Shown: positions 17,709 through 60,550 of the stretch, in pieces
Layout of the letters: each line of letters opens with the position of its first letter
How positions within the stretch are numbered: position 1 is the stretch's first letter
Source: Gammaproteobacteria bacterium
GTDB taxonomy: Bacteria > Pseudomonadota > Gammaproteobacteria > Steroidobacterales > Foliamicaceae
Assembly (NCBI GenBank): GCA_009845905.1
Contig: VXYS01000009.1
Coordinates: 580,325-644,324, forward strand
DNA: 64,000 nucleotides
Direction: 5' to 3'
Translations under genes and position numbers: made by a program
The notes under the pieces: model-generated
What the model was told of the DNA's origin: nothing
Database searches by the model: none
The model's input: the letters and a program-made list of their open reading frames with translations, nothing else

Positions 17709-17755
17709 GTTTTTTCTCCTGCGCTAGGGCATGATTAGGCGGAGATCCGAATGAT

Positions 17756-18205: not shown

Positions 18206-18216
18206 CCGCAGCACTC

Positions 18217-19368: not shown

Positions 19369-19372
19369 TGCG

Positions 19373-33869: not shown

Positions 33870-33883
33870 CGCTAGAGGAAACT

Positions 33884-41535: not shown

Positions 41536-41655
41536 GGAGGCGGGCCTCTGGTGGCCTCTCAAGTGGAGACAATGACCGTTTCCTTCATAGGCGCCTCCAT
41601 CGTGGAAGTAACCGCTGATCCGACTTTGGCTTTGAGACAAGAATGTCGTTGCGCG

Positions 41656-43104
41656 CTACCATTTCCATATCCTGTCTCCCAGCAAACGCCCAAAAGTGAT
41701 TGCCGACATTAGTCCCATACCACCACAAAACGACTTTCCTGACGTGGCGCCCAGACCGAGGCACTCCCCGGCTGCATAGACCCCTGGAATAACAGAGCCA
41801 TCTTCTCGGATCAACTCGAGGTTTTCATTGACAGCCAAGCCGGCGAAACTGGTCAGTGACATACCATGGTGCTTGATGCCATAGAACGGTGGACAGGCAA
41901 TAGGCGCCGGCAAGTACTTGCGTCCAAAATCTTCATCCACACCTTTCCCCACGGAACGGTTATAGCGTTCGACAGTCTCCACAAGCCCAGCGGGATCCAC
42001 GCCCATTGCTTCAGCCAGTTCTTCCGGCGAATCAGCTTTCCGAAACGACTCATGATCGTTGTAAAGTGCATCCGCCTCTTCATGGGTCATGTTGGCATAG
42101 ATGCACTTGGACTCTTCGCGGGCGCGCTGATCGAAAACCACCCAGAACGTCAGATCCGGAATCTCGAGAAGGGCGTGTTCCTTCACATCGGCGCTGTCAG
42201 AATCCTCAGCCACAAAGCGCTCACCGTCCCGGTTGACGAAGATTTCCCACAAGGGCCGCGTACCCAATAGTGATGCCGCATGAATCAGTGTCACATTCGA
42301 CACGTACGACGTATCCTTCGGGTCCTTGACACGGCCGAAAGTCGGCATGAAGAAATCCTTGTATCGAACATACCCACCAATTTTTTCGCCAACCGCATGG
42401 CCCTTGCCATTTGCGTTCGGGTGGGAACCTAGAACCGGACCGCCTTTGAACAACGGGTACCCGTTGGAGTACTTGGGAAAGACATCTGCGTTGGAGTTGT
42501 ATCCACCCATGGACAATAGAACATTGGGTGCGGAGACTGTTTTCTCCTGTTCGTCTTTCGACTTGAGTTCGACCCCGGTAACCCGGCCTTCGTCCTGCCG
42601 CACCAGATCCATGACATCTGTTTCGAGCAAGAGGGTGATGCCACCGGCATGCACTTCTTTCATGAATTCAGTTCCAAGGACCTTCTGCAGCGGTCTGCCA
42701 CCACGATCAGGTCCCCAGTATGTTCGCGCAATCCTGTAGGGCTCATGCCCCTTGAAGATCACCGGCATCTCCGGCAACAACTCCAGACCGTTGTCAAGCA
42801 ACCAGTGCAATGTATCGGCGGCATTGTCCACCGCCATACGAGTCAGAGTCGGGTCGGCCGTGTTGTGAGATATGCGCATAATGTCTTCATAGTGAAGATC
42901 CGGTGTATCGTGTATGCCGCGCACGGCCTGAAGGCGCGTGCCGGCGGCACTCATCTGTCCTGTTGAACGCTGAGTGTTGCCACCGATTTCGGCGGCCGAA
43001 TCAACCGCGAGCACACGGGCGCCGCGCTTCGAGGCGAAGGTCGCCGCGGTTTGCCCGGCTGTACCGACACCACAGATGATCACATCGTAGTCAAATGGTC
43101 CCAT
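41656..43104 (-). CDS. FAD-dependent oxidoreductase (fumarate reductase/KstD flavoprotein family)
   Basis: N-terminal DVIICGVGTAGQTAA dinucleotide fold and C-terminal GVYAAGECLG motif typical of FAD_binding_2 enzymes. Confidence 0.85.
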   Translation of the reverse strand: MGPFDYDVIICGVGTAGQTAATFASKRGARVLAVDSAAEIGGNTQRSTGQMSAAGTRLQAVRGIHDTPDLHYEDIMRISHNTADPTLTRMAVDNAADTLHWLLDNGLELLPEMPVIFKGHEPYRIARTYWGPDRGGRPLQKVLGTEFMKEVHAGGITLLLETDVMDLVRQDEGRVTGVELKSKDEQEKTVSAPNVLLSMGGYNSNADVFPKYSNGYPLFKGGPVLGSHPNANGKGHAVGEKIGGYVRYKDFFMPTFGRVKDPKDTSYVSNVTLIHAASLLGTRPLWEIFVNRDGERFVAEDSDSADVKEHALLEIPDLTFWVVFDQRAREESKCIYANMTHEEADALYNDHESFRKADSPEELAEAMGVDPAGLVETVERYNRSVGKGVDEDFGRKYLPAPIACPPFYGIKHHGMSLTSFAGLAVNENLELIREDGSVIPGVYAAGECLGLGATSGKSFCGGMGLMSAITFGRLLGDRIWKW

Positions 43105-43184
43105 TAGCTCTCAATCGATCTGGCGCTGGACTATGGCAGCGATGACCAGGCCGCCCGCTATCCGCGGATTCCTGGTTCTCTCTT

Positions 43185-45074
43185 CTAGTTGTCGGGAAAC
43201 GTGCGCTGTGTCCACTCTATGATGTCCGCCAACACCTGTGGCTTCGACTCCCTCAATCCGTGGCTGCCCTGCATATACCACCGGGACTCGGCATTGCCTT
43301 TGTGTGCTGACGTGAATTCTTCGATAAACGACTTACTCATTAGTCCATCGCGCTGGCCGGCGATAGTCAAGCTGGGCCGGTCAAATTCGGCCACGCGGTC
43401 AGTATGGACAGCTCGGGAATCGGGAGCCCAGTACTCAAGATACATCCCTGCCAGTTGGTCCATCACACTTCTTAATGGTCCGAATCGCTCTTCCGAAGCC
43501 GCATAGAACTTGTGATTGATCAGATAACTGTCGCCTTCGCCCCGTGCTACTGCCGCACGGGCTTCCTCGAGAACCTGTAGATATCGCTCTTCCCCCATCC
43601 CGTCTCGGCCCCATGTGGGCATGTCCCGTGTCGGCGCCAGATAGACCATTCCGATGACACGCGAATCCTGGCTGACGCTCATGTAATTGCTGATCCAGAT
43701 ACCGCCCGCCGAGTGACCTTCCATGATGACTCGGTCATGGCCACGAGACTCCAGAAAATCCACCCACAATCCGAGATCTTCAGCTACCTCCGCCAGCCCG
43801 GTCTTTTGAATGCCTTGTGCGCCGGAAATGCGGCTCTCCGGTGCCAAGACCACATAACCCGACACCGCAAGCCGCCACCCAAGCCAGTGATTCGAGCTGT
43901 GCACAATGTCACCCGTCCAACCGTGCTGCAGCAGGAAAACGGGTTTGTCAGGATCGGCACCTGCAGCGGGCGTGTACAGAATTCCCGGGTGATATCGGCC
44001 ATTACCCATGGCCACATCCACGACTTCGGTGACTATTCGCGACTTTGGCGCAAGCTCAAGGTCACTCAGCCACAATGTCACGTCATCAGAAACCTGATCC
44101 CACACTCCTTCAAAGAAGCGATTGGTGTCTTTGTACCAGCGATAGTCGACCCTGGAACTGGCTGTGGCCGATTGGGCTAACGCCTCCAGTCGCCCGGCCG
44201 GCACCGTAGGATCATTGATCCCGGACAACAGTAGTATCGGCATCTTGATTTTCGGAAGCCAATCCGACGTTCTGGTCTTGGCCTCGGGACCCCAAAAACT
44301 CAGAAAAGCCTCGGCCGTCTGAATCACTCCGTCAGCAACGTAGATCCACTCGTCAGGTGCCAGGCCCTTTTGCATGTCCGGATCTGCACTTCTGTCTGCA
44401 CCGCCGCGGCCCGCGGCAACCGCCCTTTGCGCACGCACCAACTTTTGATCGTAGTCCTGGACCAACCCCGTCGCTTCAACAACAGAGCCTTCGCCGTGCA
44501 AGTCGGACGGCGAGAAGTTCACTACCGCTTTGACGCGAGGATCTTGAGTTGAAGCTTGATACCAGGTCACCCTGGACGCCCCCAGACCGTGGCCCGCCAG
44601 AATCAGCTCTTGAATTCCTCGAGAATTGAGGAAATCGAGGCCGGTCTGAATATCCAATGCTGTTTCTTCAAACTTCACCGTTCGATAGTGCCTGGCGTGG
44701 CGCGAGTAGATGCTGAGAACCGTGTAGCCCTCCGCGGCCAGACGTTCTGCGGCAAAGCGGGCCGGACCGGTCGATCGGGCGGGATGCCCACCCAGTCCAT
44801 CGTGGTGAATCAAGATGCCCGGACTGTACTGATTGATACCGTCGTCGGGATAGAACAGCATGGCCATCAGCGGCTCCGCCGATTGACCCAAGTCTCGCAG
44901 GAGCTTCGCATATTGACCGGACACAACCGTCGGTATGGATAGGATTTCCACTTTCACGCCCGAGGTACGAGGTACCAAACCGGTCGCCTCCGGCGTCCCG
45001 ACTTCTTGTGCATGCCCCATTGGGCCCAAAACAAACCACGCAATCCCAACAACTATCAACGAAGCCCTTCTCAT
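43185..45074 (-). CDS. Secreted tandem-domain alpha/beta hydrolase (domain 1 lacks nucleophile, domain 2 GHSAG)
   Basis: ATG 45074 preceded by ggaggtg. Signal peptide MRRASLIVVGIAWFVLGPMGHAQ. Elbow 1 is AGHGLGAS (44580-44594) and elbow 2 is EGHSAGG (43695-43724). Confidence 0.8.
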   Translation of the reverse strand: MRRASLIVVGIAWFVLGPMGHAQEVGTPEATGLVPRTSGVKVEILSIPTVVSGQYAKLLRDLGQSAEPLMAMLFYPDDGINQYSPGILIHHDGLGGHPARSTGPARFAAERLAAEGYTVLSIYSRHARHYRTVKFEETALDIQTGLDFLNSRGIQELILAGHGLGASRVTWYQASTQDPRVKAVVNFSPSDLHGEGSVVEATGLVQDYDQKLVRAQRAVAAGRGGADRSADPDMQKGLAPDEWIYVADGVIQTAEAFLSFWGPEAKTRTSDWLPKIKMPILLLSGINDPTVPAGRLEALAQSATASSRVDYRWYKDTNRFFEGVWDQVSDDVTLWLSDLELAPKSRIVTEVVDVAMGNGRYHPGILYTPAAGADPDKPVFLLQHGWTGDIVHSSNHWLGWRLAVSGYVVLAPESRISGAQGIQKTGLAEVAEDLGLWVDFLESRGHDRVIMEGHSAGGIWISNYMSVSQDSRVIGMVYLAPTRDMPTWGRDGMGEERYLQVLEEARAAVARGEGDSYLINHKFYAASEERFGPLRSVMDQLAGMYLEYWAPDSRAVHTDRVAEFDRPSLTIAGQRDGLMSKSFIEEFTSAHKGNAESRWYMQGSHGLRESKPQVLADIIEWTQRTFPDN

Positions 45075-45400
45075 GGCACCTCCGATTGATTCAATAACTC
45101 GAACCACTCCAATCTCTTCAATGCGGCGTCAACTACGCCACCACGTTAATTTCGTGAAATCCTTTGTGCGCGGCGAAACAACCACCTCCCGCTCGATGCG
45201 ACTCGCCATTGGCATCGGCCAAATCATAGACCAAAACGTTTGCGCCAGCCTGAAACTCGACACGTAGAGCGATAACCCGTACGCTCGACGGCTTGTGCGA
45301 GAGACACGTACCGAGTTACGCGACCTGTTCGCAGATTTTGGTGCTGTCGCCAGTCAATAGGGACGCTACTACCCCTTCCGCGATACATTGAGAGCCAGGC

Positions 45401-46117
45401 ATGAGACTTTTCTATTCGCCGTTCCACAGTTTCGTGCACAAGACTCTGGTCGTTGCGCACGAGGCGGGCCTTTGGGAGACACTCACCCGAGTGCCCACTT
45501 TTCCATTCCGCGACCTCAATGGACGATTCGTCACCGGTCAGTACGACATGAGCGAACTCGCTCCGCTGGGGAAGGTGCCTTGTTTGGCGCTGGAGGACGG
45601 TAGCGTCCTGTACGGCAGTCAAACCATTGTCGAATTTCTCGACGCGCAACGCGTCACGAACAGGCTTTATCCCCCGGACGGAGCGAAGCGTTGGGATGCG
45701 CTGCGTCGCCTTGCGCTCGGCGACACGCTGTTCGAATGCGCCGTGCAACTGAGCATGGAAGCGTGGTTACCGGAAGAAGCACGTCGCCGAACACTGTACG
45801 AATGGGTGTGGCCCAAGATCGTAGCGACATTGGACGATGCCGATCGTTGGGCGGCAACAAACCCGGACTTCGATATCGGTTCGGCCGGCTTGCTGCAAGG
45901 TGTCAGTTACCTTGGCGAAGAAGGAAGCGCCGAAGACCTCTTGCACCCGAGGTACCGGTGGCGCGACGGACGACCTGCGCTGAGCGATTGGTACGACGTG
46001 GTCATCCAACGCCCATCGGTGCAAACACACTTGAATGTCGATTATGACGGCGACATGTCACCGGAGAACCACCAACGCCATGTCCAGGCCGTACTCGACA
46101 TAAGGAAAAAACGGTAG
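45401..46117 (+). CDS. Glutathione S-transferase family protein
   Basis: Thioredoxin-like N-domain MRLFYSPFHSFVHK...LGKVPCLALEDGSVLYGSQTIVEFLD and a helical C-domain. Confidence 0.8.
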   Translation: MRLFYSPFHSFVHKTLVVAHEAGLWETLTRVPTFPFRDLNGRFVTGQYDMSELAPLGKVPCLALEDGSVLYGSQTIVEFLDAQRVTNRLYPPDGAKRWDALRRLALGDTLFECAVQLSMEAWLPEEARRRTLYEWVWPKIVATLDDADRWAATNPDFDIGSAGLLQGVSYLGEEGSAEDLLHPRYRWRDGRPALSDWYDVVIQRPSVQTHLNVDYDGDMSPENHQRHVQAVLDIRKKR

Positions 46118-46816
46118 ATGATTGACTTCTATTTCTGGCCAACGCCAAATGGGCAAAAGGTGGCGATCATGCTTGAGGAAGTTGGACTCGAGTACACCAC
46201 AATCCCCGTCAATATCCTTGAGGGTGAGCAGTTCGCGAAGGATTTTCTCACGATTAGCCCCAACAACAAGATTCCAGCGATCGTCGACCATGCCGACGGA
46301 ACCGGTGGCCCCCATTTCCCGCTTTTCGAATCCGGGGCGATACTGATCTACCTTGCCGACAAGACCGGGCAGCTCTTGCCGTCATCCCCTCGATTGCGCT
46401 TCGAAGTCCTGCAGTGGTTAATGTTTCAGATGGCGAGCGTTGGGCCCATGTTTGGTCAGTGTGGGCACTTTCTTGGCTATGCGCCTGAGAAGATTCCCTA
46501 TGCGATAGAACGCTATCAAAACGAAACACTTCGATTGTACAAAGTCATGGATAAACGGCTTGCGGATGTTCCATATATTGCTGGCGACTACTCTATCGCC
46601 GATGTCGCGATCTATCCGTGGGTCCAAGTGCGCTGGCTGCACGAAATTGACATCACTCAGTTTCCGAATGTAGAGCGCTGGTACAACACCTTGTCTGATC
46701 GACCAGCAGTTCAACGCGGATGTGCCCTGCTAAAAGAACATGAAGTGATCGGCGACCCGTCCGATGAGACTCGCGAAGCGTTCTTCGGCAAGACACAACT
46801 GGAACAGGGACAGTAG
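46118..46816 (+). CDS. Glutathione S-transferase, Nu-class (YfcG/YghU-like)
   Basis: MIDFYFWPTPNGQKVAIMLEE...NNKIPAIVD...LFESGAILIYLADKTG closely resembles the YfcG-type N-terminus. Starts immediately after the previous stop. Confidence 0.88.
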   Translation: MIDFYFWPTPNGQKVAIMLEEVGLEYTTIPVNILEGEQFAKDFLTISPNNKIPAIVDHADGTGGPHFPLFESGAILIYLADKTGQLLPSSPRLRFEVLQWLMFQMASVGPMFGQCGHFLGYAPEKIPYAIERYQNETLRLYKVMDKRLADVPYIAGDYSIADVAIYPWVQVRWLHEIDITQFPNVERWYNTLSDRPAVQRGCALLKEHEVIGDPSDETREAFFGKTQLEQGQ

Positions 46817-46818
46817 AA

Positions 46819-47814
46819 ATGGCCGATATCACACAGGTGATTCTGGAACGCCGCCCCAACGGCGTACCGCAAGCAAGCGACTTCCGTCTGGAGTCCACAC
46901 CTTTGCCAACGCCTGGAGAGGGTCAGATTCTCATCAAGGTTCACTATCTGTCCCTGGACCCGTATTTGCGAGGAAAGATCTCCGGGCGGCATATGTCGGG
47001 AGGCGTTGAACCAGGGTCGGTCATGGCCGGTGAAACGGTTGGCGAGGTGGTCGAGTCCCATTCACCAGAATTCGCCGTAGGTGATACCGTCCACTCGTTT
47101 TCCGGCTGGTGCAGTCACGCTGCCGTCGACGCATCAACAGCGCGAAAGGTTCAGTCGCACGGGTTGCCGCTGTCGTTGGCGCTAGGTGCGCTGGGCATGC
47201 CAGGACTTACGGCCTATGCCGGCATCAAACGCCTGGCCGATATTCGTGCAAACGACACGTTCCTCGTATCGGCGGCATCCGGTCCGGTCGGCTCAGTCGC
47301 CGCCCAAATCGCACGACTGGCTGGCGCACGCACGGTGGGCATTGTCGGCTCTCCTCAGAAGTCGGATTGGATTCTCGATGAGGCCAGGTTCGACGACGCC
47401 ATCAATTACCGCGAAGAAGATCTGCGAGACGGGATCAGGCGTACCTGTCCTGATGGCGTTGATGTTTATTTCGACGCAATTGGTGGCGACGTGCTGGAAG
47501 CCGTTTGTGAGCAGTTGGCGCTTCAGGCGCGAGTTATATTGTGCGGTTTGTTGGCTCAATACAATTCGAAAGAACGACTGATGGGACCGCCACCTGGCCT
47601 GATTATTCGCGCTCGGGCGCACATGCACGGATTGGTTGTGTACGACCATGAAGACTTACGCGCGGAGATGGAGGCAAAGAACAGCGCCTGGATTCACAGT
47701 GGCGATATGGCCTACAACGAAGATGTCGCCGATGGTTTGGAAAACGCCGGGGAGGCGTTTGCACGGCAGATGTCCGGCAAGAACTTCGGCAAGTCGATTG
47801 TTCGCATCAGCTAG
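46819..47814 (+). CDS. NADP-dependent alkenal/enone oxidoreductase (MDR, CurA/YncB/PTGR1-like)
   Basis: LSLDPYLRGK and the nucleotide motif AASGPVGSVAAQIARLAG; 331 aa. Confidence 0.88.
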   Translation: MADITQVILERRPNGVPQASDFRLESTPLPTPGEGQILIKVHYLSLDPYLRGKISGRHMSGGVEPGSVMAGETVGEVVESHSPEFAVGDTVHSFSGWCSHAAVDASTARKVQSHGLPLSLALGALGMPGLTAYAGIKRLADIRANDTFLVSAASGPVGSVAAQIARLAGARTVGIVGSPQKSDWILDEARFDDAINYREEDLRDGIRRTCPDGVDVYFDAIGGDVLEAVCEQLALQARVILCGLLAQYNSKERLMGPPPGLIIRARAHMHGLVVYDHEDLRAEMEAKNSAWIHSGDMAYNEDVADGLENAGEAFARQMSGKNFGKSIVRIS

Positions 47815-47870
47815 CCCTCTGTAACTTCTGCAACCGGCGCTGATTGCCAAAGACCTTAGGGGTAAAAACC

Positions 47871-49682: not shown

Positions 49683-49704
49683 ATTCGCAACGGACGCGAC
49701 TGCG

Positions 49705-52903: not shown

Positions 52904-53814
52904 CGGGATCTCTCGCGCCAGCGTCGATTCGCCTCCATGTCTTCGGCAAAGGCCACCGCGTTGTCCCTGCAACCACTCTGCTCGTAGCGTTCTTCATAGC
53001 CGATGAGATGTCCTTCAGGATCACAGATATAGCCGAGCACGCCGCGGCCAAACTGAATTCGGTCGTTCACGATTCGAACTTTGTTCGCCAGAAGCGTCTC
53101 TCGAAAACCGTCAAAATCATCGACGCGCAGGATAAACGCATCAGGTACTTCGAAACGATCTTGCGGCGGAGACTCTGCTTGTCCGCCCGCCCTGAGCTCA
53201 AGTGCGGTCGAATCGCCACAATCGAGTACAACGTGCGTTGGTGCTGCCTCGACAATGGGCAGTCCGACAGTGTCGGAATAGAACGCCGCCATAGCGCCGA
53301 GATCGGCGACGTGACGGATGATCGAGTCTATGCCCTGAATATCCCGCGGCAAGGGCGCAACACCCGGATTGTAGGCGCGATGGTTTTCCCGCATCGTCAA
53401 TCGCTCGCGAGCGACAATATCAATCGGCCTCGTCGAATCCATCGGGGCCTGTCGGAGCATGACGAAGTGCTCATCGATGTCTTGAAAAACCGCATAGTCG
53501 CCAAACTCGTCGTTTCCGGACGCCACTACATCCACGTTGAAACGCCTCAAACGGGACAGGACACTGCCTAGCTCCACGCATCGAATTACCGGTAACGTCG
53601 GACTGCTTTTCCAATCGGGATAACGCCATTCGGGTCCCGCGTCGGACTTGGGCTCAAACACGACTGTCTCTCCAGCCCAAAACAACCAGGCATCTGCGTA
53701 GCCCCGCAACAATGGCAGTTGCAGGACTTCACCATAAAAGGCCGCCACGCGTTCCGCATTCTGCGACCGCGGCAACACCCAACCCAGACTGATAACTCGA
53801 GCCGATCGCGACAT
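52900..53814 (-). CDS. Two-module VOC (glyoxalase/bleomycin-resistance/dioxygenase) family protein
   Basis: ATG 53814 lies 17 nt downstream of the phyH stop. Two VOC-type module starts: AAFYGEVLQLPLL and AAFYSDTVGLPIV. Confidence 0.7.
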   Translation of the reverse strand: MSRSARVISLGWVLPRSQNAERVAAFYGEVLQLPLLRGYADAWLFWAGETVVFEPKSDAGPEWRYPDWKSSPTLPVIRCVELGSVLSRLRRFNVDVVASGNDEFGDYAVFQDIDEHFVMLRQAPMDSTRPIDIVARERLTMRENHRAYNPGVAPLPRDIQGIDSIIRHVADLGAMAAFYSDTVGLPIVEAAPTHVVLDCGDSTALELRAGGQAESPPQDRFEVPDAFILRVDDFDGFRETLLANKVRIVNDRIQFGRGVLGYICDPEGHLIGYEERYEQSGCRDNAVAFAEDMEANRRWRERSR

Positions 53815-53831
53815 TACGGCCTCCAGTTCCG

Positions 53832-54680
53832 TTACGCCGCAGCTTCCGAGCCCGGCCGCGCCCACACCAATGGAAACAGGTCACCGCCCGGTCGTTTCCC
53901 TTCGGGCAGCGAATCCATACCTGGCACACCCACTGCCCCTTCACGTGACTTCCAGCGGATATCATCGCCAATCCATCGCGACGACAATCCTACGCGCGGG
54001 TACTCGGCATTGGTTGCGTCGCCTGAACCATGCGGCGTACGCGGATGGAACAACACCGAATCGCCGGGCTCGAGATCGTAGCCAACAATTTCGTAATCGA
54101 AATCGGGATCCTCCCGAAGTTCATTGAAATCCGGACATACCGGTGCTGTCTCCGGCCCGAAATCACCCTTCAGATAGCTGCCTCGGAATATCATGTCCTC
54201 ATCGACGAGCTTCTTGTGATAGCCGGCGACAAACTCCAGACGACCGTTGGATTTCGACACAGGTTCAAGTGCCAGCCAAAGCGTCGGTACCTGGTGTCCA
54301 CTCATTGGCCACGTCGTCATGTCATGGTGCCACCGCATTACATGTGGCGATCCGATCGGCTTTATAAACAGGTGGTCTTGAAATGCTCTTATTTCCCGGC
54401 AACCCAATACACGACCCACAATCTCTGCGGCAGGCGAACTCAGAATATAGTCACGAAACAACCCACCGTGGCGCCACAGGTAGATTATCGAGACAAAGTT
54501 CTCGCTATGGGATGGTCCTGTATGCTCATATCGGTCGACATTTCTTGTGGCTTCGTCGACAGCTTCGCGCAATCGGTTGCACCATTCCTGATCGAACATG
54601 CCACGCACACAGACCACACCATCGCGCTCGTAGGTGGTGCGATGCTCGTCGCTGATTGGCTTTAACGGTTCTCTGTTCAT
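53832..54680 (-). CDS. PhyH-family Fe(II)/2-oxoglutarate dioxygenase
   Basis: ATG 54680 overlaps the ABC ATPase stop (ATGA). YERDGVVCVRGMF N-terminus, an HxD motif in RWHHD, and a distal His in LFHPRTPHGS. Confidence 0.8.
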   Translation of the reverse strand: MNREPLKPISDEHRTTYERDGVVCVRGMFDQEWCNRLREAVDEATRNVDRYEHTGPSHSENFVSIIYLWRHGGLFRDYILSSPAAEIVGRVLGCREIRAFQDHLFIKPIGSPHVMRWHHDMTTWPMSGHQVPTLWLALEPVSKSNGRLEFVAGYHKKLVDEDMIFRGSYLKGDFGPETAPVCPDFNELREDPDFDYEIVGYDLEPGDSVLFHPRTPHGSGDATNAEYPRVGLSSRWIGDDIRWKSREGAVGVPGMDSLPEGKRPGGDLFPLVWARPGSEAAA

Positions 54681-56491
54681 TTCATTTCTCCTGTCTCGGC
54701 TGAGCGCAGCTCGCCCGGAAAATGGCAGGCGACATGACGCCCGTGGCTTTCCTTCAGGGCGGGTTTTTCGACACTGCATAAAGGCCTGGCGATCGGACAA
54801 CGGGAATGGAAGGCACACCCGGAAGGGAGATTCAACGGTGACGGCTGCTCGCCCCGTAGCGAGATTCTCTCCGACCGCCGTTCCGGTTGTGGATCCGGCG
54901 CTGCTGACAGCAACGCTGCCGTATACGGATGCAGGGGGTCGCGGGTGAGTGTCCGCCCCTCGGCTTCCTCGACGATTTCGCCAAGGTACATAACAACGAG
55001 TCGATCCGCGATGTGATGCATCAATGCCAGATCGTGGGCGACGATGAGATACCCAATGCCAAATTCGGATTGCAGCGATTTGAGCAACGCCACGATTTGC
55101 GCCTGCATGGAAACGTCCAACCCGGCCACTGGTTCATCGGCGATCAGGATCTCCGGTTGTAATGCCAGCGCCCGAGCAATGGCGATGCGTTGGCGTTGTC
55201 CGCCGGAAAACTGATTCGGACGCCGATTGAGTGAATCGTCCGGCAGGCCTACCAATGACAATACCTCGCGAACTCTTCCCTCGCGCTCTTTTGGGGTTCC
55301 CAATCGTTGCGCGCGCAGCGGTTCCGCGACGATTTTGCGCACCGTCCATCGCGGATTGAGGCTGGCGTACGGATCCTGAAAGACCAACTGCAGGCGTCGC
55401 CGAAGCGGCTTTAGCTCCTGCTCACGTGCGTCGGTGATGTCTTGTCCATCAAAAAATACCGAACCCTGCGTTGGCCGGTGTATACCCATCAATGCCGAAA
55501 TCAGTGTTGACTTGCCTGATCCGGATTCGCCCACCAGCCCCACGGTTTCGCCACGACTCAAGGATATATCGACGCCGTTTACCGCGTGCAGATCCTGGCC
55601 TTTCGTCCTGAACGTCACGCGGAGCGTTTTGCCCTCAAGCAGCGGTCGATCCTCCACCGCGGTAAAGGAACTGCGTGGAACCACGTACGGGCGCCGAAAG
55701 CTCGGCACGGCACGAACAAGCGATTTCGTGTACTCATGCTGCGGGCGAGCAAGCAATTCCGCACACTCGCCTGATTCGATGAACTCACCACGTTTCATGA
55801 CCACGATTCGATCGCAAATCTCTGCGGCAACGCCCAAGTCATGCGTCACCAGAATCATGCCACGCTCGCCAATTCGACTCTTAAGCAAATCCAGGATCTG
55901 CGCTTGAATGGTTGAATCCAATGCTGTGGTTGGTTCGTCGGCGATCAGTAACGATGGATTGTTCAGTGTCGACAACGCAATCATTACACGTTGTCGGAGT
56001 CCGCCGGAAAGTTCGTGGGGATAAGCGCCGAATCGCTGTTCAGGCACCGGTATGCCGACGTCCGACATGGCCTCGACACAACGCGTACGTGCTTCCTTTA
56101 TGGAAATCTCCTGGTATCGAAGTACGGTCTCCAGCATCATTGCACCGACCGTACGCACAGGATTGAAACTACTCATTGGATCCTGAAACACCATGGCGAT
56201 TTCTCGCCCACGCAGTGCTCGCGTTTGCTCCGGACGATAGTCGGTAATTTCATGACCATTGAGCCGGACTGAGTCGACAGTACGAATTCCTGTTTGCGGT
56301 ACCAGATCAAGGAGGCTCAGTCCGACCATGGTTTTGCCGGAACCCGATTCGCCGACAAGACCAACGATCTCTCCTCGATTGATATTTAAATCGACAGCGC
56401 GAACGACCTTGTCCCAGGTACCATCAATCTTGGGAAATTTGACGGTCAGCCCGCGAAGCTCAAGGACACTGTTTTCTTGTCGAGGGTTCAT
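54677..56491 (-). CDS. Fused double ATPase of an oligopeptide-type ABC importer (DppD-DppF-like)
   Basis: ATG 56491 overlaps the permease stop (ATGA). Two Walker A sites (GESGSGKT, GESGSGKS), two signatures (LSGGLRQR, FSGGQRQR), and an oligopeptide C-terminal motif HPYT. Confidence 0.9.
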   Translation of the reverse strand: MNPRQENSVLELRGLTVKFPKIDGTWDKVVRAVDLNINRGEIVGLVGESGSGKTMVGLSLLDLVPQTGIRTVDSVRLNGHEITDYRPEQTRALRGREIAMVFQDPMSSFNPVRTVGAMMLETVLRYQEISIKEARTRCVEAMSDVGIPVPEQRFGAYPHELSGGLRQRVMIALSTLNNPSLLIADEPTTALDSTIQAQILDLLKSRIGERGMILVTHDLGVAAEICDRIVVMKRGEFIESGECAELLARPQHEYTKSLVRAVPSFRRPYVVPRSSFTAVEDRPLLEGKTLRVTFRTKGQDLHAVNGVDISLSRGETVGLVGESGSGKSTLISALMGIHRPTQGSVFFDGQDITDAREQELKPLRRRLQLVFQDPYASLNPRWTVRKIVAEPLRAQRLGTPKEREGRVREVLSLVGLPDDSLNRRPNQFSGGQRQRIAIARALALQPEILIADEPVAGLDVSMQAQIVALLKSLQSEFGIGYLIVAHDLALMHHIADRLVVMYLGEIVEEAEGRTLTRDPLHPYTAALLSAAPDPQPERRSERISLRGEQPSPLNLPSGCAFHSRCPIARPLCSVEKPALKESHGRHVACHFPGELRSAETGEMK

Positions 56492-57357
56492 AAAAGCGGC
56501 GCAGGGCCCTTTTGCCGGAACCGCTGCGTCAATCCGTCTCCCAATAGATTGGCGGCGACAACCACAATCACAATCGCAATTCCCGGGGCAAACACCAACC
56601 AGGGTTCGCGCAGCAGGTATTGGCGCGCCTCCGCCAGCATGTTGCCCCAGGTTGGCGCACCGAGAGGTGCACCGATTCCAAGAAACGAAAGTGCGCTTTC
56701 GGCGATCAACATGTCCGCACAATTGAACGCGGTCATCGCCAATAGCGTGGGCAGGATACCTGGCAGAAGATGCCCACCAAGAATCGACCAGCGACCGACC
56801 CCCTGCAACCGCGCGTTAGTCACGTAGCTGCGCTGCATGAGGCTTAGTGCCTCCGCATAGGTCACCCGAGCAAAGACCGGCCAGCCCAGGAAACCGAGCG
56901 TCAGCACCATTGGCAGCCAGCCTTGACCAATTATCGCAATGACACAAACCGCAACGATGAGTCCCGGAAACGCAATAACCGTATCTGTAAACCACCGAAT
57001 CGTTGTGCGCGGCCACCCGTCGATTCCCGCGGCCGATAAACCAAGAATTGCCCCAATCGTGAGCGAAATAAGTGTTGCGCTGACCGCCGCACTGCTCGAC
57101 CAGACGAGGCCGGCGAGCAACCGCGACCAGATATCACGCCCGATGTGATCGGTTCCAAGCCAATGTCCGGCAGTACCAAGGGGCTGCAGGCGATTCTCAA
57201 GCACATTGACGTCCGGTTCGTGCGCGGACAACAAAGGCGCGAACACAACCATCAACGCCAACGCGAGACACATGCCAATGCCGAATATGAGTTCCACGTT
57301 GCGGCTACCCAGGGCCCGCCGCCGTGTTGGTTCAAGCCGACGACGCGCGAAAATCAC
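56488..57357 (-). CDS. ABC importer permease (DppC-like)
   Basis: GTG 57357 overlaps the upstream stop (GTGA). 289 aa, about 6 TM helices, EAA-loop-like region YAEALSLMQRSYVTNARLQGV. Confidence 0.88.
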   Translation of the reverse strand: MIFARRRLEPTRRRALGSRNVELIFGIGMCLALALMVVFAPLLSAHEPDVNVLENRLQPLGTAGHWLGTDHIGRDIWSRLLAGLVWSSSAAVSATLISLTIGAILGLSAAGIDGWPRTTIRWFTDTVIAFPGLIVAVCVIAIIGQGWLPMVLTLGFLGWPVFARVTYAEALSLMQRSYVTNARLQGVGRWSILGGHLLPGILPTLLAMTAFNCADMLIAESALSFLGIGAPLGAPTWGNMLAEARQYLLREPWLVFAPGIAIVIVVVAANLLGDGLTQRFRQKGPAPLL

Positions 57358-58316
57358 GTGCTGGTCCCCGTGTCACGTAACCTCGGATCGAAGAACCGAA
57401 AGCTCATGTCCGTAAGCGTATTGACGGCGAAGACCAGTACGGCAATGAAGATTGCGAGAGTCTGGACCAATGGAAAATCCAGCGTTCTTGTTGACTGCAT
57501 GAGCTGCCAGCCCAGACCAGGCCATGCGAACATCGTCTCAACGATCACCGAGCCCGAAACCAGGTACGCGAACTGCGCACCGATGAGCGCAACCGCACCC
57601 AGCAGCGCATTGGGCAACGCGTGCCTCCAAAGCACTGCGCGCGGCGATGAGCCATATGCGAGTGCTGTGCGAATGTAGTCTTTGCTTAGCGTCTCGGATA
57701 CCTTGGTGCTGATGACACGCGTGAGCTTGGGCACCAGAAAGGAAGCCAGTGTCAGTGTCGGCAACACCCAGGTTTCGAGTCCGCCTCGACCGATCGACGG
57801 CAACCAACCCAGTTTTACCGACAACAACTGGATGAGAAAGAGACCGGCAACGAATCCCGGCACACCCTGTGCGAGAAAGATAATCAGATTCGCAACGCGA
57901 CGAGACCCGTGCATCTGGTAAATACCAAGCCAGGCTCCTAATGGGAGACAAATGGCAATGGTGAGAAGCATTGCCATCACGGTTAACTGAAGTGTTACCG
58001 GGAGCGCTTCCACCACCACTGTCAATGCGGGTCGACCGCTTTCCAGCGAGATGCCGAAATCAAGGCGCGCCAAGGACCATAGATAGTTGATGTACTGCAC
58101 AACGAGCGGTTGATCGAGGCCGTAGTGCGCTTTGATCGCTGCCAGCTGGGCTTCAGTAGCATCCGGACCCGCCAGAACAAGCGCTGGGTCACCGGCGACG
58201 CGGAGCAGAAAAAACAACAGCGTCACCAGCGAAAACAACAGAAAGAAGAGCTCCTTCAGTTTCCGCAGGCTGGATTGTGCTAGCGGAGACCGAGTAAAAA
58301 CACGAATTGGCGCCAT
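57354..58316 (-). CDS. ABC importer permease (DppB-like)
   Basis: 320 aa; RVAGDPALVLAGPDATEAQL N-terminal region and the EAA motif KDYIRTALAYGSSP typical of DppB/OppB. Confidence 0.88.
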   Translation of the reverse strand: MAPIRVFTRSPLAQSSLRKLKELFFLLFSLVTLLFFLLRVAGDPALVLAGPDATEAQLAAIKAHYGLDQPLVVQYINYLWSLARLDFGISLESGRPALTVVVEALPVTLQLTVMAMLLTIAICLPLGAWLGIYQMHGSRRVANLIIFLAQGVPGFVAGLFLIQLLSVKLGWLPSIGRGGLETWVLPTLTLASFLVPKLTRVISTKVSETLSKDYIRTALAYGSSPRAVLWRHALPNALLGAVALIGAQFAYLVSGSVIVETMFAWPGLGWQLMQSTRTLDFPLVQTLAIFIAVLVFAVNTLTDMSFRFFDPRLRDTGTST

Positions 58317-58441
58317 AATCGCGGCTCTCCACTTGGCCGAGCATTTGGGCGCACCGTCACGGCATGCCCCCGTTGTAATTTACTCCCAATAAACATCCAA
58401 GTCGGGTGTTGTTGGATAGACTTGACTGATCAGGTCAGGAA

Positions 58442-59965
58442 ATGTCTAAACCAGAAATACCAGCCATTCAAAACGTAACTGCAGGCCGAGCGGTCCGCTG
58501 CGCTGCCGAACGAGCGCCTGAAAAGGTGGCAATCTCGTTCGAAGACCGCTCCCTGACCTACCGCGAATTGGCGGATCGCATAAGCCGGGTCGCGGCCCTG
58601 TCAAGTGAAAAGTGGGCGCTTGGTGCCGGCGATCGAGTGGTCCTCCTTGCACCCAATTGCATTGAATACGCTGAACTCTTATTCGGTTTGACGGAAATGG
58701 GCGTGGTAGTCGCCACTTTGAATCCGTCTCTCACCTCAAGCGAACTTAAGAAGATAGTGGCTGATTGTGATCCCACTCTGGTCATCGCTCACAATGAATT
58801 ACGAGACGTCGTGGACTCGGCGCTTCCTACGGAGACCTTTGGTGGAAACCAAACCGACCTCATTAAAGACATCCAACCAATAGACAATTATCCGGCGATC
58901 ACCGAGGAACACCCGTTCGTGATCGGCTATACGTCCGGGACAACCGGCGACCCCAAAGGAGTCGTACTGTCCCACAGGAGTCGGACATGGACTTTGATGG
59001 CAATGGGGGTTGAGTGGGGTTGCTTTGGACCCAATGATGACTTTTTGCTGATGACACCACTTTTCCATGCCGCTGGTTTTGTCTTTTTGGCGGCACCTTT
59101 GATGTTTGGTGGAACAGTCACAATCACGAGATCCTTCGACGTCGACAGGGCCATCACACTATTGTCAACCGACCGGCATACAGGGGTGTTCCTGGTGCCG
59201 ACGATGATTCATCGAATGCTGGATTCGTTAGCGGAATCCAATATCCCGTTCCCTGGAGAGACGCTGAAGACTGTGATCAGCAATGCCGCAGCACTCCCGC
59301 AAGCCACCAAGGAAAAAGTGGTAAATCAATGGGGCGAAGGCCTGTTGCACGAGACGTACGGAGCAACGGAGTATGGAATAGTCACCAACATTCGGCCCGA
59401 AGATCAACTGCTGAAGGAAGACAGCGTTGGCACGCCCTTTGCCAACATGGAAGCACAGATCCGGGACCAGGACGGCCATGTCATCAACGGCGAAGGTACG
59501 GGACTGCTCTATGCGCGCGGCCCATCAACCTTTAGCGGGTATTGGCGTAATCCTGCCGAAACCCGGAAAGCCGTCCAGGACGGTTGGGTCACGGTGGGCG
59601 ATGTGGCCAGGCGCGACAAAGATGGATGCTACTATATCGTCGACCGCGCGAAAGACATGGTCGTTAGCGGCGGCGTAAACATCTACCCGCGGGAAATCGA
59701 GAAAGTCTTGATGGCCTTACCCGATGTGGTGGAGTGTGCTGTTATCGGCGTACCTGACAGTGAGTGGGGTGAGAGATTGCGGGCCTTTGTTGTTGCCGCT
59801 GACTCAGCCAGGCTGACTTCGTCCCAAATAATCGAACACTGTCGCAATCAACTCGCCAGCGCAAAGATTCCTCGTGACATATTGTTCACCGACGATCTTC
59901 CCAAGAACGCTTCCGGCAAGGTCCTGAAGAACAGGCTCAGAGAGAGGAAAAAACGTGAGCAATGA
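58442..59965 (+). CDS. AMP-dependent acyl-CoA synthetase/ligase
   Basis: AMP-binding motif IGYTSGTTGDPKGV, YGATE, GWVTVGDVARRDKDGCYYIVDRAKD, and a C-terminal GKVLK. Confidence 0.9.
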   Translation: MSKPEIPAIQNVTAGRAVRCAAERAPEKVAISFEDRSLTYRELADRISRVAALSSEKWALGAGDRVVLLAPNCIEYAELLFGLTEMGVVVATLNPSLTSSELKKIVADCDPTLVIAHNELRDVVDSALPTETFGGNQTDLIKDIQPIDNYPAITEEHPFVIGYTSGTTGDPKGVVLSHRSRTWTLMAMGVEWGCFGPNDDFLLMTPLFHAAGFVFLAAPLMFGGTVTITRSFDVDRAITLLSTDRHTGVFLVPTMIHRMLDSLAESNIPFPGETLKTVISNAAALPQATKEKVVNQWGEGLLHETYGATEYGIVTNIRPEDQLLKEDSVGTPFANMEAQIRDQDGHVINGEGTGLLYARGPSTFSGYWRNPAETRKAVQDGWVTVGDVARRDKDGCYYIVDRAKDMVVSGGVNIYPREIEKVLMALPDVVECAVIGVPDSEWGERLRAFVVAADSARLTSSQIIEHCRNQLASAKIPRDILFTDDLPKNASGKVLKNRLRERKKREQ

Positions 59966-60380
59966 GACGTTCCGCACAACCAGACAAAAAGCAGTGGCAC
60001 TGGATTTTCTGGAAGCGTTCTGGCGGGCTGATCTGGATGAAGCCTACGCACATCTGACTTCGGACGCCAAGTTTTACGTCGCGCCCTCTGGCGCTGACGT
60101 TCGCGAGCAAGATGCGCGATCCATGCTGGAATTCCTTGTAGACAAACTCTTCAGTCGGTTTCATGAGAATCACCCGCTGAAGTGCGAAATCACTTCGATG
60201 ATACAGGAGCATGATGTGGTTGCAACGGAGTATGTTGCGCGAGCAAAAACGTTCCGCTTAGAACCCTACGAGAATTATTACTCGGCTCATTTGGTAATTG
60301 AGGACCATCTGGTCAGGTCGATCAGCACCTACGGGGACACGTTGTATATGAAGGGTTTGTTGTCCATGCAACGCGGCTAA
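59955..60380 (+). CDS. SnoaL/NTF2-like small protein
   Basis: GTG 59955 overlaps the ligase end by 11 nt. 141 aa; ALDFLEAFWRADLDEAYAHLTSDAKF resembles ketosteroid-isomerase/SnoaL-like folds. Weak call. Confidence 0.5.
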   Translation: MSNETFRTTRQKAVALDFLEAFWRADLDEAYAHLTSDAKFYVAPSGADVREQDARSMLEFLVDKLFSRFHENHPLKCEITSMIQEHDVVATEYVARAKTFRLEPYENYYSAHLVIEDHLVRSISTYGDTLYMKGLLSMQRG

Positions 60381-60405
60381 CGGGTTTCGTAAGCTATTGA
60401 TTTAA

Positions 60406-60481
<76 letters not shown>

Positions 60482-60550
60482 TTGGGGAAAGTGCGCGGAT
60501 TATAGCGTCGCGCCGGCATTTTCGAATGTCGCGCGCGAGGCGCCGCAGGG

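Follow-up and report, generated by a model that had tools for sequence, protein, structure and literature searches.

Among genomic islands at tRNA-Phe genes, the pheV and pheU islands of Escherichia coli are the textbook examples, and tRNA genes also host flexible genomic islands, hot spots that are kept by homologous recombination of conserved flanks. The standard mark of a tyrosine-integrase island is its position, with a regenerated tRNA gene at one end and the 3′ piece displaced from it at the other, and tRNA-gene islands of this class have been catalogued by Islander (PMC4383910). Cis-mobilizable elements (CIMEs), by definition, are without the integration and transfer genes that they once had, and keep attL and attR (PMC5704250).

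The window analyzed here, a 64-kb stretch of DNA, belongs to an uncultured sponge-associated gammaproteobacterium that is kin to Candidatus Foliamicales. Its positions 41557–60405 very likely constitute a recently acquired, cargo-only genomic island directly 3′ of tRNA-Phe(GAA). As in other tRNA-integrated islands, the block immediately follows the 3′ end of an intact tRNA gene and has a displaced 3′ fragment in the same orientation at its far end; foreign composition, presence or absence among strains, and alternative cargo at the same locus in relatives are likewise shared, and the tRNA-Phe gene is mutY-linked, as in many Gammaproteobacteria. Unlike the Islander class, however, it contains no integrase gene and would thus fail Islander’s integrase filter, it has no phage, conjugation, or mobilization genes, and its displaced fragment is 8 nt long, whereas the tRNA repeat of an integrase-bearing island at an equivalent tRNA (L076) measures 46 nt. 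With CIMEs and decayed integrative mobilizable elements it shares the lack of integration and transfer genes and the direct repeats at a tRNA 3′ end (PMC5704250); CIMEs, however, are decay products with functional attL and attR, whereas in this block no remnant of a former element is left, the repeats are only putative att sites, and the insertion is very young. A single intergenic point between conserved core genes, varied cargo, and polymorphism also within the species are features in common with flexible genomic islands, from which it differs in that 8 bp of the tRNA end are cleanly duplicated, which points to a specific founding recombination event and not to allele exchange alone. The island is of an ordinary type with no mobility gene of its own, and the observation is real: a preliminary description of this DNA had proposed an acquired block adjoining the 3′ terminus of tRNA-Phe, with a repeat of that terminus as its boundary, and both the empty sites and the composition described below support it.

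Island boundaries and empty sites

The features that define the locus are as follows.

41017..41535, + strand: DoxX-family membrane protein of the host flank (Pfam DoxX), stop codon 13 nt from the distal repeat
41549..41556, no strand: distal repeat copy TGGTGGCC, the displaced tRNA-Phe end, adjoining host DNA
41557..60405, no strand: inserted island, absent from nine collinear related contigs; composition change-point at 41557
41557..41573, no strand: left-terminal 17 nt, not common to the L086 cluster in alignments
60392..60405, no strand: 14 junction nt beside the tRNA, AGCTATTGATTTAA on the + strand, missing from the 97%-identical L093 copy
60406..60481, − strand: intact tRNA-Phe(GAA) (ARAGORN), CCA end facing the block
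60406–60413: proximal repeat copy TGGTGGCC, the last 8 nt of tRNA-Phe
60551–60823, − strand: yggX (Iron_traffic) of the host flank, upstream of tRNA-Phe (gene call and Pfam)
60857–61915, − strand: mutY of the host flank, upstream of tRNA-Phe (gene call and Pfam)

The insert spans 18,849 bp at a coding density of 95%, and the extent first given for the block, 41549–60405, corresponds exactly to one repeat copy plus the insert. Nine contigs with otherwise collinear flanks have an empty site, in which DoxX directly adjoins tRNA-Phe, yggX, and mutY, with 13 nt between the DoxX stop codon and the tRNA-Phe CCA; one is from the same species (99.4% nucleotide identity), two represent sister lineages (about 91–96%), and six are more distant, with flank identities ranging from 99.4% down to 80%. 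L001 aligned at 91% nucleotide identity to window positions 64000–60406 and 41556–39211, two flank alignments that overlap by 8 nt. The same 8-nt overlap was obtained at the empty site of L101, where the flanks are 99.4% and 100% identical, and in L101, L001, and L102 the left and right alignments overlap by exactly TGGTGGCC. L102 (GCA_009836205.1) and L103–L108 are also empty at the tRNA-Phe site; no further empty site was found in the scanned collections beyond the nine contigs. The ancestral order is tRNA-Phe, 13 nt, DoxX stop codon. Comparison with relatives had been set as the refuting test for acquisition, and these nine contigs show close relatives without the genes at this location. 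Every longer contig encoding the identical DoxX protein has the island, and alleles with the island coexist with empty ones whose flanks are 99.4% identical; because the two differ by 0.6% there, the insertion is very young.

The 8-bp repeat, GGCCACCA in the orientation of the tRNA, consists of 4 nt of the acceptor stem, the discriminator A, and CCA. Both copies reported earlier are present and form a true junction duplication, but the 8-mer, said to recur once, is not unique: nine copies occur in the window versus 3.0 expected, including those at 41458 and 60560. The count alone is therefore uninformative, and the significance of the 8-mer derives from its junction position, as seen in the empty-site alignments. 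Identity does not continue past the distal repeat (7/37 matches inward and 13/45 outward), and a search for a longer att repeat, as had been suggested, found no longer direct repeat at the island ends. The 17 nt that follow the window tRNA (the 14 junction nt and the next 3) match those in L031 and L057 at 15 of 17 positions, compared with a maximum of 14 in 2000 shuffles, and on this sequence evidence resemble the tRNA-Phe trailers of other Gammaproteobacteria. At the opposite end, homology with L086 extends via the 3′ UTR of the FAD-oxidoreductase gene to about 41574, and the left-terminal 17 nt beyond it may be a remnant of a recombination site or of the donor flank.

Base and codon composition

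The base and codon composition of the island is foreign to the host. GC content is 0.562 in 41557–60405 versus 0.643 in the rest of the window, and the 60-nt counts on which the compositional shift was first noticed (31/60 at 46141, 30/60 at 52081, and 38/60 at 9001) are exact. A blind two-change-point likelihood fit returned 41557–60529 with a log-likelihood gain of 181; its left edge is the first base past the 8-mer, and its right edge lies 124 nt beyond the tRNA 3′ end. GC3 was 0.620 ± 0.025 in the 15 block genes (range 0.580–0.665) and 0.802 ± 0.042 in 28 flank genes (range 0.693–0.866), ranges that are disjoint (Mann-Whitney p = 9e-8); GC3 of the block is 4.3 flank standard deviations low. 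Codon usage placed all 15 block genes nearer the pool of the block and 26 of the 28 flank genes nearer that of the flanks, and tetranucleotide correlation with the host was 0.73–0.76 for block chunks versus 0.89–0.93 for host chunks. The GC, GC3, codon, and tetranucleotide tests recommended at the outset thus put the shift far outside flank variance, the host reference being the 45 kb of flanks only.

Gene content and related clusters

Public gene calls give 15 genes in the island, not the 17 open reading frames counted initially. Pfam assignments agree with the initial view that the cargo is metabolic and transport-related.

41656..43104, − strand: FAD-dependent oxidoreductase, 482 aa (Pfam FAD_binding_2, E = 2e-47)
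43185..45074, − strand: tandem double alpha/beta-hydrolase, 629 aa (Pfam Hydrolase_4, Abhydrolase_1, DLH)
45401..46117, + strand: glutathione S-transferase-like protein, 238 aa (Pfam GST_N_2)
46118..46816, + strand: YfcG-like (Nu-class) glutathione transferase/GSH-dependent oxidoreductase, 232 aa (Pfam GST_N, GST_C)
46819..47814, + strand: CurA-like NADPH-dependent enone (C=C) reductase, 331 aa (Pfam ADH_N_2, ADH_zinc_N)
47871..49682, + strand: tandem double alpha/beta-hydrolase, 603 aa (Pfam; gene call)
49705..51294, − strand: tandem double alpha/beta-hydrolase, 529 aa (Pfam Abhydrolase_1 twice)
51362..52777, − strand: family-5 (Dpp/Opp/Nik type) periplasmic substrate-binding protein of an ABC importer (Pfam SBP_bac_5, E = 1e-63)
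52900..53814, − strand: two-domain VOC/glyoxalase-fold protein, 304 aa (Pfam Glyoxalase)
53832..54680, − strand: Fe(II)/2-oxoglutarate oxygenase of the PhyH family, 282 aa (Pfam PhyH, E = 1e-26)
54677..56491, − strand: fused double ATPase of an ABC importer (DppD/DppF-like), 604 aa (Pfam ABC_tran twice, oligo_HPY twice)
56488..57357, − strand: ABC importer permease, 289 aa (Pfam BPD_transp_1)
57354..58316, − strand: ABC importer permease, 320 aa (Pfam BPD_transp_1, BPD_transp_1_N)
58442..59965, + strand: acyl-CoA ligase (AMP-binding), 507 aa (Pfam)
59955..60380, + strand: SnoaL/NTF2-fold protein, 141 aa (Pfam SnoaL_2)

The cargo is a rare gene cluster of sponge metagenomes that is found in other contexts too. 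In the orthologous catabolic cluster (L086, L094, L093, L090, and L091), 13 of the 15 window genes have collinear orthologues, at 84–94% amino acid identity in L086 and 97% nucleotide identity in L093. L086 and L094 match at about 85% nucleotide identity, and there the neighboring genes encode an IclR regulator, a TonB receptor, or an amine oxidase. The orthologous copies adjoin DUF1838 and amine-oxidase genes, whereas the window copy adjoins a tRNA; they also have extra FAD enzymes, FAD_binding_4, Amidohydro_2, and an IclR regulator, which adjoins the permeases, whereas the window copy has no IclR regulator, and its expression would therefore be constitutive or controlled from elsewhere. L093 matches window positions 60391–41632 at 97.3% nucleotide identity, without the tRNA, and this copy splits a DUF1838 gene, whose N- and C-terminal parts flank it. 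The ends of the copy do not coincide with those of the island, being offset by 14 nt at one end and by about 75 nt at the opposite one, and the block is therefore not proven as a fixed-end element.

Origin of the insertion

In agreement with the preliminary description, Pfam searches of all 15 island genes revealed no integrase, transposase, or DNA-binding regulator, and neither an integrase nor an IS or transposase was found in the whole 64-kb window. The additional claim that mobility genes had been lost is without direct support, as the island contains no integrase remnant: the longest stretch in it without coding sequence measures 326 nt, and four tRNA-Phe-linked integrases used as tblastn queries gave no match. 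The island ends are tight, with the nearest stop codons 25 nt (tRNA side) and 99 nt away, and it may therefore be that no integrase was ever encoded in cis. No circular junction of the island was found in the scanned collections. The tRNA-Phe site is a hot spot: L002, L003, and L009 hold other cargo at the same point, and the unrelated cargo at the insertion point in five related genomes amounts to 0, 2, 4, at least 9.5, or 18.8 kb, with no mobility gene seen in any of the five. Among Gammaproteobacteria, mutY and tRNA-Phe were linked in 43 of 80 loci, and an integrase-like gene lay 10–450 nt downstream in 7 of 42 mutY-linked tRNA-Phe loci.

The account tentatively preferred here, at somewhat below even confidence, comprises an integrase supplied in trans or tracelessly lost, a circular copy of the block, a single Campbell-type crossover, and a polymorphism maintained thereafter. 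The 8-bp tRNA end is the most likely place of the crossover, which an integrase working in trans would probably have catalyzed. The circular copy would carry GGCCACCA followed by a tRNA-Phe-like trailer, the single crossover would join it to the chromosome at the 3′ terminus of tRNA-Phe, and the catalyst would be a tRNA-Phe-specific tyrosine integrase; presence/absence polymorphism would then be kept by homologous recombination via the conserved flanks, or by excision. Because neither the island nor the rest of the window contains an integrase, this catalyst is hypothetical, and known crossover sites in tRNA genes would normally leave a fragment longer than 8 nt (PMC4383910).

Homology-facilitated illegitimate recombination without an integrase is the strongest competitor, though rather unlikely. 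Linear donor DNA, with the block beside the donor’s own tRNA-Phe, would be anchored by homology in tRNA-Phe, perhaps together with yggX and mutY, and joined at its other end through the 8-bp microhomology GGCCACCA; the donor order would be tRNA-Phe, TTAAATCAATAGCT, SnoaL through to the FAD gene, GGCCACCA, and then unrelated DNA. The repeat is short enough for microhomology, the usual range of which includes 8 nt, and the 14–17 nt beside the tRNA are trailer-like and missing in L093, as expected of a block from a tRNA-Phe-adjacent donor. No recombinase, terminal inverted repeats, or arm-like repeats were found, and a double crossover would fit the observed structure topologically. The joint, however, would need to coincide precisely with the terminal 8 nt of the tRNA, the recipient neither losing nor gaining a base, a perfect att-like outcome that is predicted by site-specific recombination and not by illegitimate joining; the other cargo at the same point in L002, L003, and L009 fits a recognized site better than a series of accidents, and a donor with the required arrangement was not found.

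In the version first proposed, a classical integrase-bearing island or integrative mobilizable element inserted beside the tRNA by means of its own integrase and then decayed in situ, losing its integrase and transfer genes by deletion, together with most of the displaced tRNA fragment, until a cis-mobilizable remnant was left. The 7 of 42 loci with integrases directly adjoining the equivalent tRNA-Phe are in keeping with this, as is L031, which has the post-tRNA motif in common with the window and an integrase stop codon 6 nt from its tRNA, and the definition of CIMEs given above would accommodate the gene content. Such decay is nonetheless doubtful, somewhat below illegitimate recombination in probability: a coding density of 95%, with 25 nt from the tRNA to the SnoaL stop codon, a negative tblastn search, and no mobility gene fragment, speaks against it, a 0.6% flank difference leaves little time for a clean multi-step decay, and the 97%-identical L093 copy also has no integrase.

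An ancestral block lost differentially from relatives, its composition reflecting gene content or local mutation bias, is very improbable, for although deletion between the 8-bp repeats would give exactly the observed empty site, nine empty contigs at 99.4% to 80% identity need many independent, identical, precise deletions, the cargo of the outgroups L002, L003, and L009 is unrelated, GC3 is 4.3 standard deviations low with foreign codon and tetranucleotide usage, and the block occurs at 97% identity in another chromosomal context. Transposition by a DDE transposase in trans is equally hard to credit: the flanking duplication is exactly 8 bp, and several IS families produce duplications of that length, but terminal inverted repeats are lacking (observed score 8, below a shuffle mean of 9.4), no IS or transposase lies in the island or window, the ends of the L093 copy differ, and the insertion lies at a tRNA 3′ end, the canonical target of integrases.

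Predicted functions of the cargo

We infer from the gene families that the cargo encodes a predicted nutrient importer with breakdown enzymes. The Dpp/Opp-family ABC importer, whose substrate-binding protein has YliB, NikA, and AccA among its solved relatives, would take up a small compound, probably host- or symbiont-derived, on which the three tandem double alpha/beta-hydrolases would act. The 629-aa and 603-aa hydrolases are paralogues (32% identity), and both look secreted, their N-termini resembling signal peptides by eye; the 529-aa hydrolase, for which alternative starts would give 557 or 586 aa, belongs to a rare family: a search of 5.8 billion protein clusters gave only 18 homologues at E ≤ 1e-10.

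Further proposed enzymes include a MysH-like Fe/2OG oxygenase (best solved relative MysH, E = 3e-27), the VOC protein, whose sole solved relatives are weak FosA matches, the CurA-like enone reductase (NCBIfam curcumin reductase, 343 bits, under the cut-off of 440), and two GSTs, of which the 232-aa protein scored 236 bits against NCBIfam PRK13972 (under the cut-off of 332). The 482-aa FAD protein would be a soluble ene-reductase or dehydrogenase; it belongs to the soluble fumarate/urocanate-reductase and 3-ketosteroid dehydrogenase family, matches an NCBIfam flavocytochrome c subfamily under its curated cut-off, and has flavocytochrome c3 and urocanate reductase as best solved relatives (E about 1e-37 to 1e-42). 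The last two predicted members of the set are a CoA ligase and its SnoaL-fold partner. The SnoaL protein has only two clusters among the 5.8 billion, and the two genes form a module outside the region common to L086 and L094; no counterpart of the ligase was found in L086, and the ligase–SnoaL pair recurs in L109.

Empty sites and the boundaries of the insertion

With MutY as the query and one genome taken per species, 80 loci of relatives were recovered, the closest being L001 (MAG COS2_bin_9). This contig aligned at 91% nucleotide identity to window 64000-60406 and 41556-39211, the two alignments overlapping by exactly 8 nt, GGCCACCA, the last 8 nt of tRNA-Phe; in L001 the CCA end of the tRNA is followed by 13 nt and then by the DoxX stop codon. 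Among contigs encoding an identical DoxX protein, five carried the lower-GC block and one (L101, 737 nt) did not. The latter matched window 40920-41556 at 99.4% identity and then 60406-60446 at 100%, with the same 8-nt overlap, and is, by its sequence, an empty allele of the same species. Also empty were L102 (GCA_009836205.1; DoxX 98.8% identical in amino acids, flanks 92-96% in nucleotides) and six contigs, L103-L108, whose flanks are 80-88% identical. The block is therefore 18,849 bp of precisely inserted DNA, accompanied by a duplication of 8 bp at the tRNA end. The limits given in the preliminary description, 41549-60405, proved exact, and the alignment to relatives that it had proposed found DoxX beside tRNA-Phe, with the island absent, in every one of these empty contigs. 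A search of JGI metagenomes for the empty-junction pattern gave no match. The tRNA genes called by ARAGORN were as follows:

60406-60481, minus strand: tRNA-Phe(GAA)
40212-40286: tRNA-Gln

Because tRNA-Phe lies on the minus strand, its CCA end faces the block; the gene is intact, and its 3′ end at 60406 directly abuts the island end at 60405. The displaced same-orientation tRNA fragment spans 8 nt (41549-41556), its exact position at the junction coming from four empty-site alignments, and is far shorter than usual (compare 46 nt in L076, another tRNA-Phe locus). As read in the window, the 8-mer is TGGTGGCC, present at 41549 and 60406 and in seven further copies, including 41458 and 60560 (nine observed versus 3.0 expected). 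The boundary repeat noted in the preliminary description thus stands as an exact junction duplication, but it is not unique, and with nine copies in the window its count was rejected as evidence: only the junction position counts, the chance of the 8-mer at one given position being ∼7e-5 from its own window frequency. The longer or degenerate att repeat that it had proposed to look for did not appear: local alignment to 40.2-43.2 kb with the tRNA plus the sequence upstream of it, fuzzy matching of the last 25 nt of the tRNA across the window, and a repeat search each gave nothing beyond the 8-mer. Promoter and terminator scans at both junctions and in the divergent intergenic region were uninformative.

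Composition of the block

From ∼41 to 60.5 kb of the window, sliding-window GC content lay at 0.55-0.58, down from 0.61-0.69; it was 0.562 in 41557-60405 versus 0.643 in the rest. A blind two-change-point likelihood fit returned the interval 41557-60529 (log-likelihood gain 181), the left change-point being the first base past the 8-mer and the right one lying just past the tRNA. GC3 averaged 0.620 ± 0.025 (range 0.580-0.665) in the 15 block genes and 0.802 ± 0.042 (range 0.693-0.866) in 28 flank genes, without overlap (Mann-Whitney p = 9e-8). By codon usage, all 15 block genes were nearer the block pool and 26 of the 28 flank genes nearer the flank pool, and the tetranucleotide correlation with the host was 0.73-0.76 for block chunks versus 0.89-0.93 for host chunks. 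Measured against a host reference consisting of the 45 kb of flanks alone, the block lies outside the host range in base, codon, and oligonucleotide usage, the compositional mark of horizontally acquired DNA. The abrupt GC change first seen by eye is borne out by all of these tests, and the three direct counts of G+C per 60-nt line on which it had been based (31 at 46141, 30 at 52081, and 38 at 9001) were confirmed on recount.

Gene content of the island

Public gene calls and Pfam gave 15 genes, all metabolic or transport, in place of the 17 ORFs first counted. Coding sequence makes up 95% of the island, and its gaps reach 326 nt at most.

Genes of the island
53832-54680, minus strand: PhyH-family Fe/2OG oxygenase; closest solved relative MysH, E = 3e-27
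58442-60380: acyl-CoA ligase and SnoaL-fold protein, a two-gene module
One gene: FAD_binding_2 oxidoreductase; best solved relatives soluble fumarate or urocanate reductases
One gene: CurA-like enone reductase
One gene: two-domain VOC protein
Two genes: GSTs
Three genes: tandem double alpha/beta-hydrolases, two with signal-peptide-like N-termini by eye
Dpp/Opp-type ABC importer: family-5 substrate-binding protein (best solved relatives YliB, NikA or AccA), two permeases, and a fused double ATPase

None of the island proteins reached an NCBIfam curated cut-off, and specific enzyme names are therefore not claimed. Pfam found no integrase, transposase or DNA-binding regulator among the 15 genes, and tblastn of four tRNA-Phe-linked integrases against the window gave no match, in agreement with the preliminary description of an integrase-less, regulator-less block.

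Related clusters at other sites

The gene cluster is conserved and rare, and every contig in which it was seen derives from a metagenome. Among 5.8 billion protein clusters, the central hydrolase had only 18 homologues and the SnoaL protein was found in only two clusters, and JGI metagenome contigs yielded no confirmed match to the 529-aa hydrolase. The closest copy, in the 3.19-Mb contig L093 from another metagenome, is 97.3% identical in nucleotides over window 60391-41632. It includes the CoA ligase and SnoaL genes (the latter called at only 85 aa), lacks one hydrolase gene, and has a GC content of 0.56 versus 0.61-0.66 in its flanks. Rather than at a tRNA, it lies between the N- and C-terminal pieces of a same-strand DUF1838-family gene (480-1000 and 17650-17890), upstream of an amine oxidase; the same block therefore entered at least two different chromosomal sites. 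Its ends differ from those in the window by 14 nt and ∼75 nt and the copy looks eroded, so it is not usable to define the ends of the element.

Two further contigs, L086 and L094, matched window 41574-58372 at ∼85% nucleotide identity, with an IclR regulator and a TonB receptor (L086) and DUF1838 and amine-oxidase genes as neighbors. The clusters of L090, L091, and L092 are more distant and have extra FAD_binding_4, Amidohydro_2, flavoprotein, IclR, and malate synthase G genes. The IclR gene of L086 and L092 is missing from the island, where the ligase-SnoaL pair occupies its position beside the permease genes; this pair also recurs in an unrelated 114-kb contig (L109, 8481-10426), its SnoaL protein being 55% identical in amino acids. 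Separately, window 2206-2266, in the argR region, matched an intergenic spot (1162-1219) in the unrelated-looking flank of L094 over 61 nt at 88.5% identity. The match could reflect a short repeat element common to both or kinship of the two hosts.

The lineage is an uncultured gammaproteobacterium, represented by MAG proteins such as MYA30750.1 and by the relatives COS2_bin and Candidatus Foliamicus. Judging from sample and MAG names, the samples (ENGE20-1, SRR9841443, and SRR9841435) would be sponge metagenomes; the label KELL22 apparently refers to an Ircinia study (PMC9531527).

The tRNA-Phe site as an insertion hot spot

In three more relatives, homology ended at the tRNA-Phe CCA, with different DNA beyond it in each; it resumed at the DoxX stop in L003 and L009, and for L002, where 9.5 kb past the tRNA was retrieved, no resumption was seen in that stretch.

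Cargo at the same site in other relatives
L002 (complete chromosome OZ220729.1), 11511-21056: at least 9.5 kb, GC 0.46-0.57
L003: 4.0 kb; Rieske/VanA_C oxygenase, CysD, CysC
L009: 2.0 kb; PIN-like and antitoxin pair, AAA_14/DUF4143 ATPase

In L002 the cargo resembles a defence island, as it includes a DprA-like gene, a phosphoribosyltransferase-like ORF, and two large MmeI/Eco57I-type methylase-restriction genes. None of the three cargoes showed an integrase (in L002, over the 9.5 kb retrieved). tRNA-Phe lies just downstream of mutY in 43 of the 80 gammaproteobacterial loci; an integrase-like gene was detected by Pfam and tblastn 10-450 nt after the tRNA in 7 of 42 mutY-linked loci, and in L076 a 46-nt repeat of the tRNA marks the limits of the island. 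Integrases thus genuinely target this site in the class.

Two further observations were made in these relatives. In L009 (Candidatus Foliamicus, 11472-11720), an opposite-strand PIN-like ORF runs through the 3′ part of tRNA-Phe and is followed by the antitoxin-like ORF and then the ATPase, an arrangement suggestive of small toxin-antitoxin cargo cut short at the tRNA. In L002, a second low-GC stretch (7500-9800, GC 0.50-0.56) starts at tRNA-Gly(CCC) (7599-7672), upstream of mutY, and could represent a further insertion linked to a tRNA.

The 17 nt after the tRNA-Phe CCA (window 60389-60405), in tRNA orientation TTAAATCAATAGCTTAC, matched the post-tRNA-Phe sequence at 15 of 17 positions in L031 (Spongiibacter pelagi, 11495-11515, beside an integrase) and in L057 (a Lysobacterales MAG, 5228-5250), where the null maximum over 2000 shuffles was 14; three additional loci matched at 12 of 17. 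The first 14 of these nucleotides are absent from the L093 copy. Recombination at a tRNA-Phe, not at a random site, is supported because the 17-mer resembles other gammaproteobacterial tRNA-Phe trailers and L093 lacks its first 14 nt; the 17-mer could be either a trailer conserved after tRNA-Phe or a motif of an att arm. The motif TTAAATCAAT was considered as a remnant of the L031 integrase element, a reading weakened by its presence in the integrase-less loci L057 and L060; it may be a common tRNA-Phe trailer.

Class of the element and proposed route of insertion

The block is a tRNA-linked genomic island at a hot spot, of a known kind, and in this the preliminary description was essentially right; it is slightly unusual in being purely cargo and in its scar of only 8 bp. 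Like Islander-type islands, it lies directly 3′ of an intact tRNA, has a displaced same-orientation tRNA 3′ fragment at its distal end, and has an empty attB site in close relatives; unlike them, it has no tyrosine integrase gene (by Pfam and tblastn, with gaps of at most 326 nt). A cis-mobilizable element (CIME) keeps functional attL and attR sites usable by a related integrase (PMC5704250); here the 8-bp repeats are present as candidate att sites, and Pfam and tblastn found neither mobility genes nor a trace of former ones in the island. No structural, replication, or packaging genes of a prophage or phage satellite occurred among the 15 (Pfam, NCBIfam). A plasmid origin was rejected, as PLSDB gave only generic ABC-ATPase matches (66-68% in nucleotides) and alpha/beta-hydrolase matches of ≤30% in amino acids.

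The insertion is young, since filled alleles differ from empty ones by 0.6% in the flanking sequence. In the proposed route, a circular form of the block would have recombined once with the chromosomal tRNA-Phe terminus on the 8-nt core. That an integrase supplied in trans carried out this crossover is given a little under an even chance. Presence or absence within the species could afterwards be maintained by homologous recombination of the conserved flanks, much as for cis-mobilizable remnants and hot-spot islands. Islands of tyrosine integrases have a regenerated tRNA gene and a displaced 3′ fragment at their ends (PMC4383910), and the geometry of the proposed single crossover is theirs. 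Against a classical integrase event stand the absence of an integrase, the unusually short displaced fragment (8 nt versus 46 nt in L076), and the lack of any trace of a decayed element. Viral contigs gave no match to the tRNA-junction pattern, nor to a circular joint of the hypothetical form ...CCACTTGAGA-GGCCACCA-TTAAATCAATAGC....

Homology-facilitated illegitimate recombination anchored in the tRNA gene, for which the donor would join tRNA-Phe to TTAAATCAATAGCT-SnoaL, has perhaps one chance in a few. In-situ decay of an integrase-bearing element, the version favored in the preliminary description, is unlikely. Differential loss of the block from the relatives, which would make the empty sites secondary, is very improbable, and transposition equally so: terminal inverted repeats were not found at the island ends, where the score fell below the shuffle mean, and no transposase was found.

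On a much less likely reading, the block would be a non-autonomous mobile unit with no recombinase of its own, carried between sponge-symbiont chromosomes by a trans-acting system and landing at no fewer than two unrelated sites (the 3′ end of tRNA-Phe here and the DUF1838 gene of L093). With filled and empty alleles at 99.4% identity, base-exact junctions, and a 97%-identical copy elsewhere, the island is a clean case of a gene cluster exchanged very recently between uncultured sponge symbionts. Island finders that depend on an integrase, or on a tRNA fragment of BLAST length, would miss it; an 18.8-kb metabolic module can therefore occupy a classical tRNA hot spot and leave no more than an 8-bp scar. 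No new principle is involved, and the current understanding of genomic islands is neither overturned nor challenged.

Predicted function of the cargo

From domain content, an importer of the peptide/opine/nickel family, dependent on a periplasmic binding protein, would take up a small compound, on which two apparently secreted hydrolases and one cytoplasmic hydrolase would act, with further processing by the oxygenase, the VOC protein, two C=C-reducing or dehydrogenating enzymes, the GSTs, and the CoA ligase with its SnoaL partner. MysH is an Fe/2OG enzyme that converts mycosporine-like amino acids to palythines. That the oxygenase resembles this enzyme is no more than a lead; combined with the presence of the enone reductase and the FAD ene-reductase, it hints at a cyclohexenone- or cyclohexenimine-type substrate. 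On the basis of these three enzymes, the hydrolases, and the peptide-type ABC importer, the cargo may be a catabolic pathway for mycosporine-like amino acids or a similar cyclohexenone/cyclohexenimine metabolite of the sponge holobiont. Taken jointly, the propositions that the block is a recombinase-less unit moved in trans and, separately, that its cargo is the first catabolic pathway for mycosporine-like amino acids or the like form a long shot. The cluster is a candidate for metabolizing a compound that comes from the host or a symbiont.

Other features of the window

The rest of the window is housekeeping (arginine biosynthesis, dtd, an OPT transporter, TonB-dependent receptors, prs, and others). 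At 28098-33869, neighboring genes for TonB-dependent receptors of 934 and 956 aa have the look of tandem paralogues; a single stretch of L102 matches both 30486-30902 and 33453-33872. At 60857-63917, the start of mutY overlaps by ∼44 nt with the 3′ end of a bacteriocin-type C39-peptidase ABC exporter gene; as the contig L084 shows, the membrane-fusion partner of that gene falls just beyond the window.
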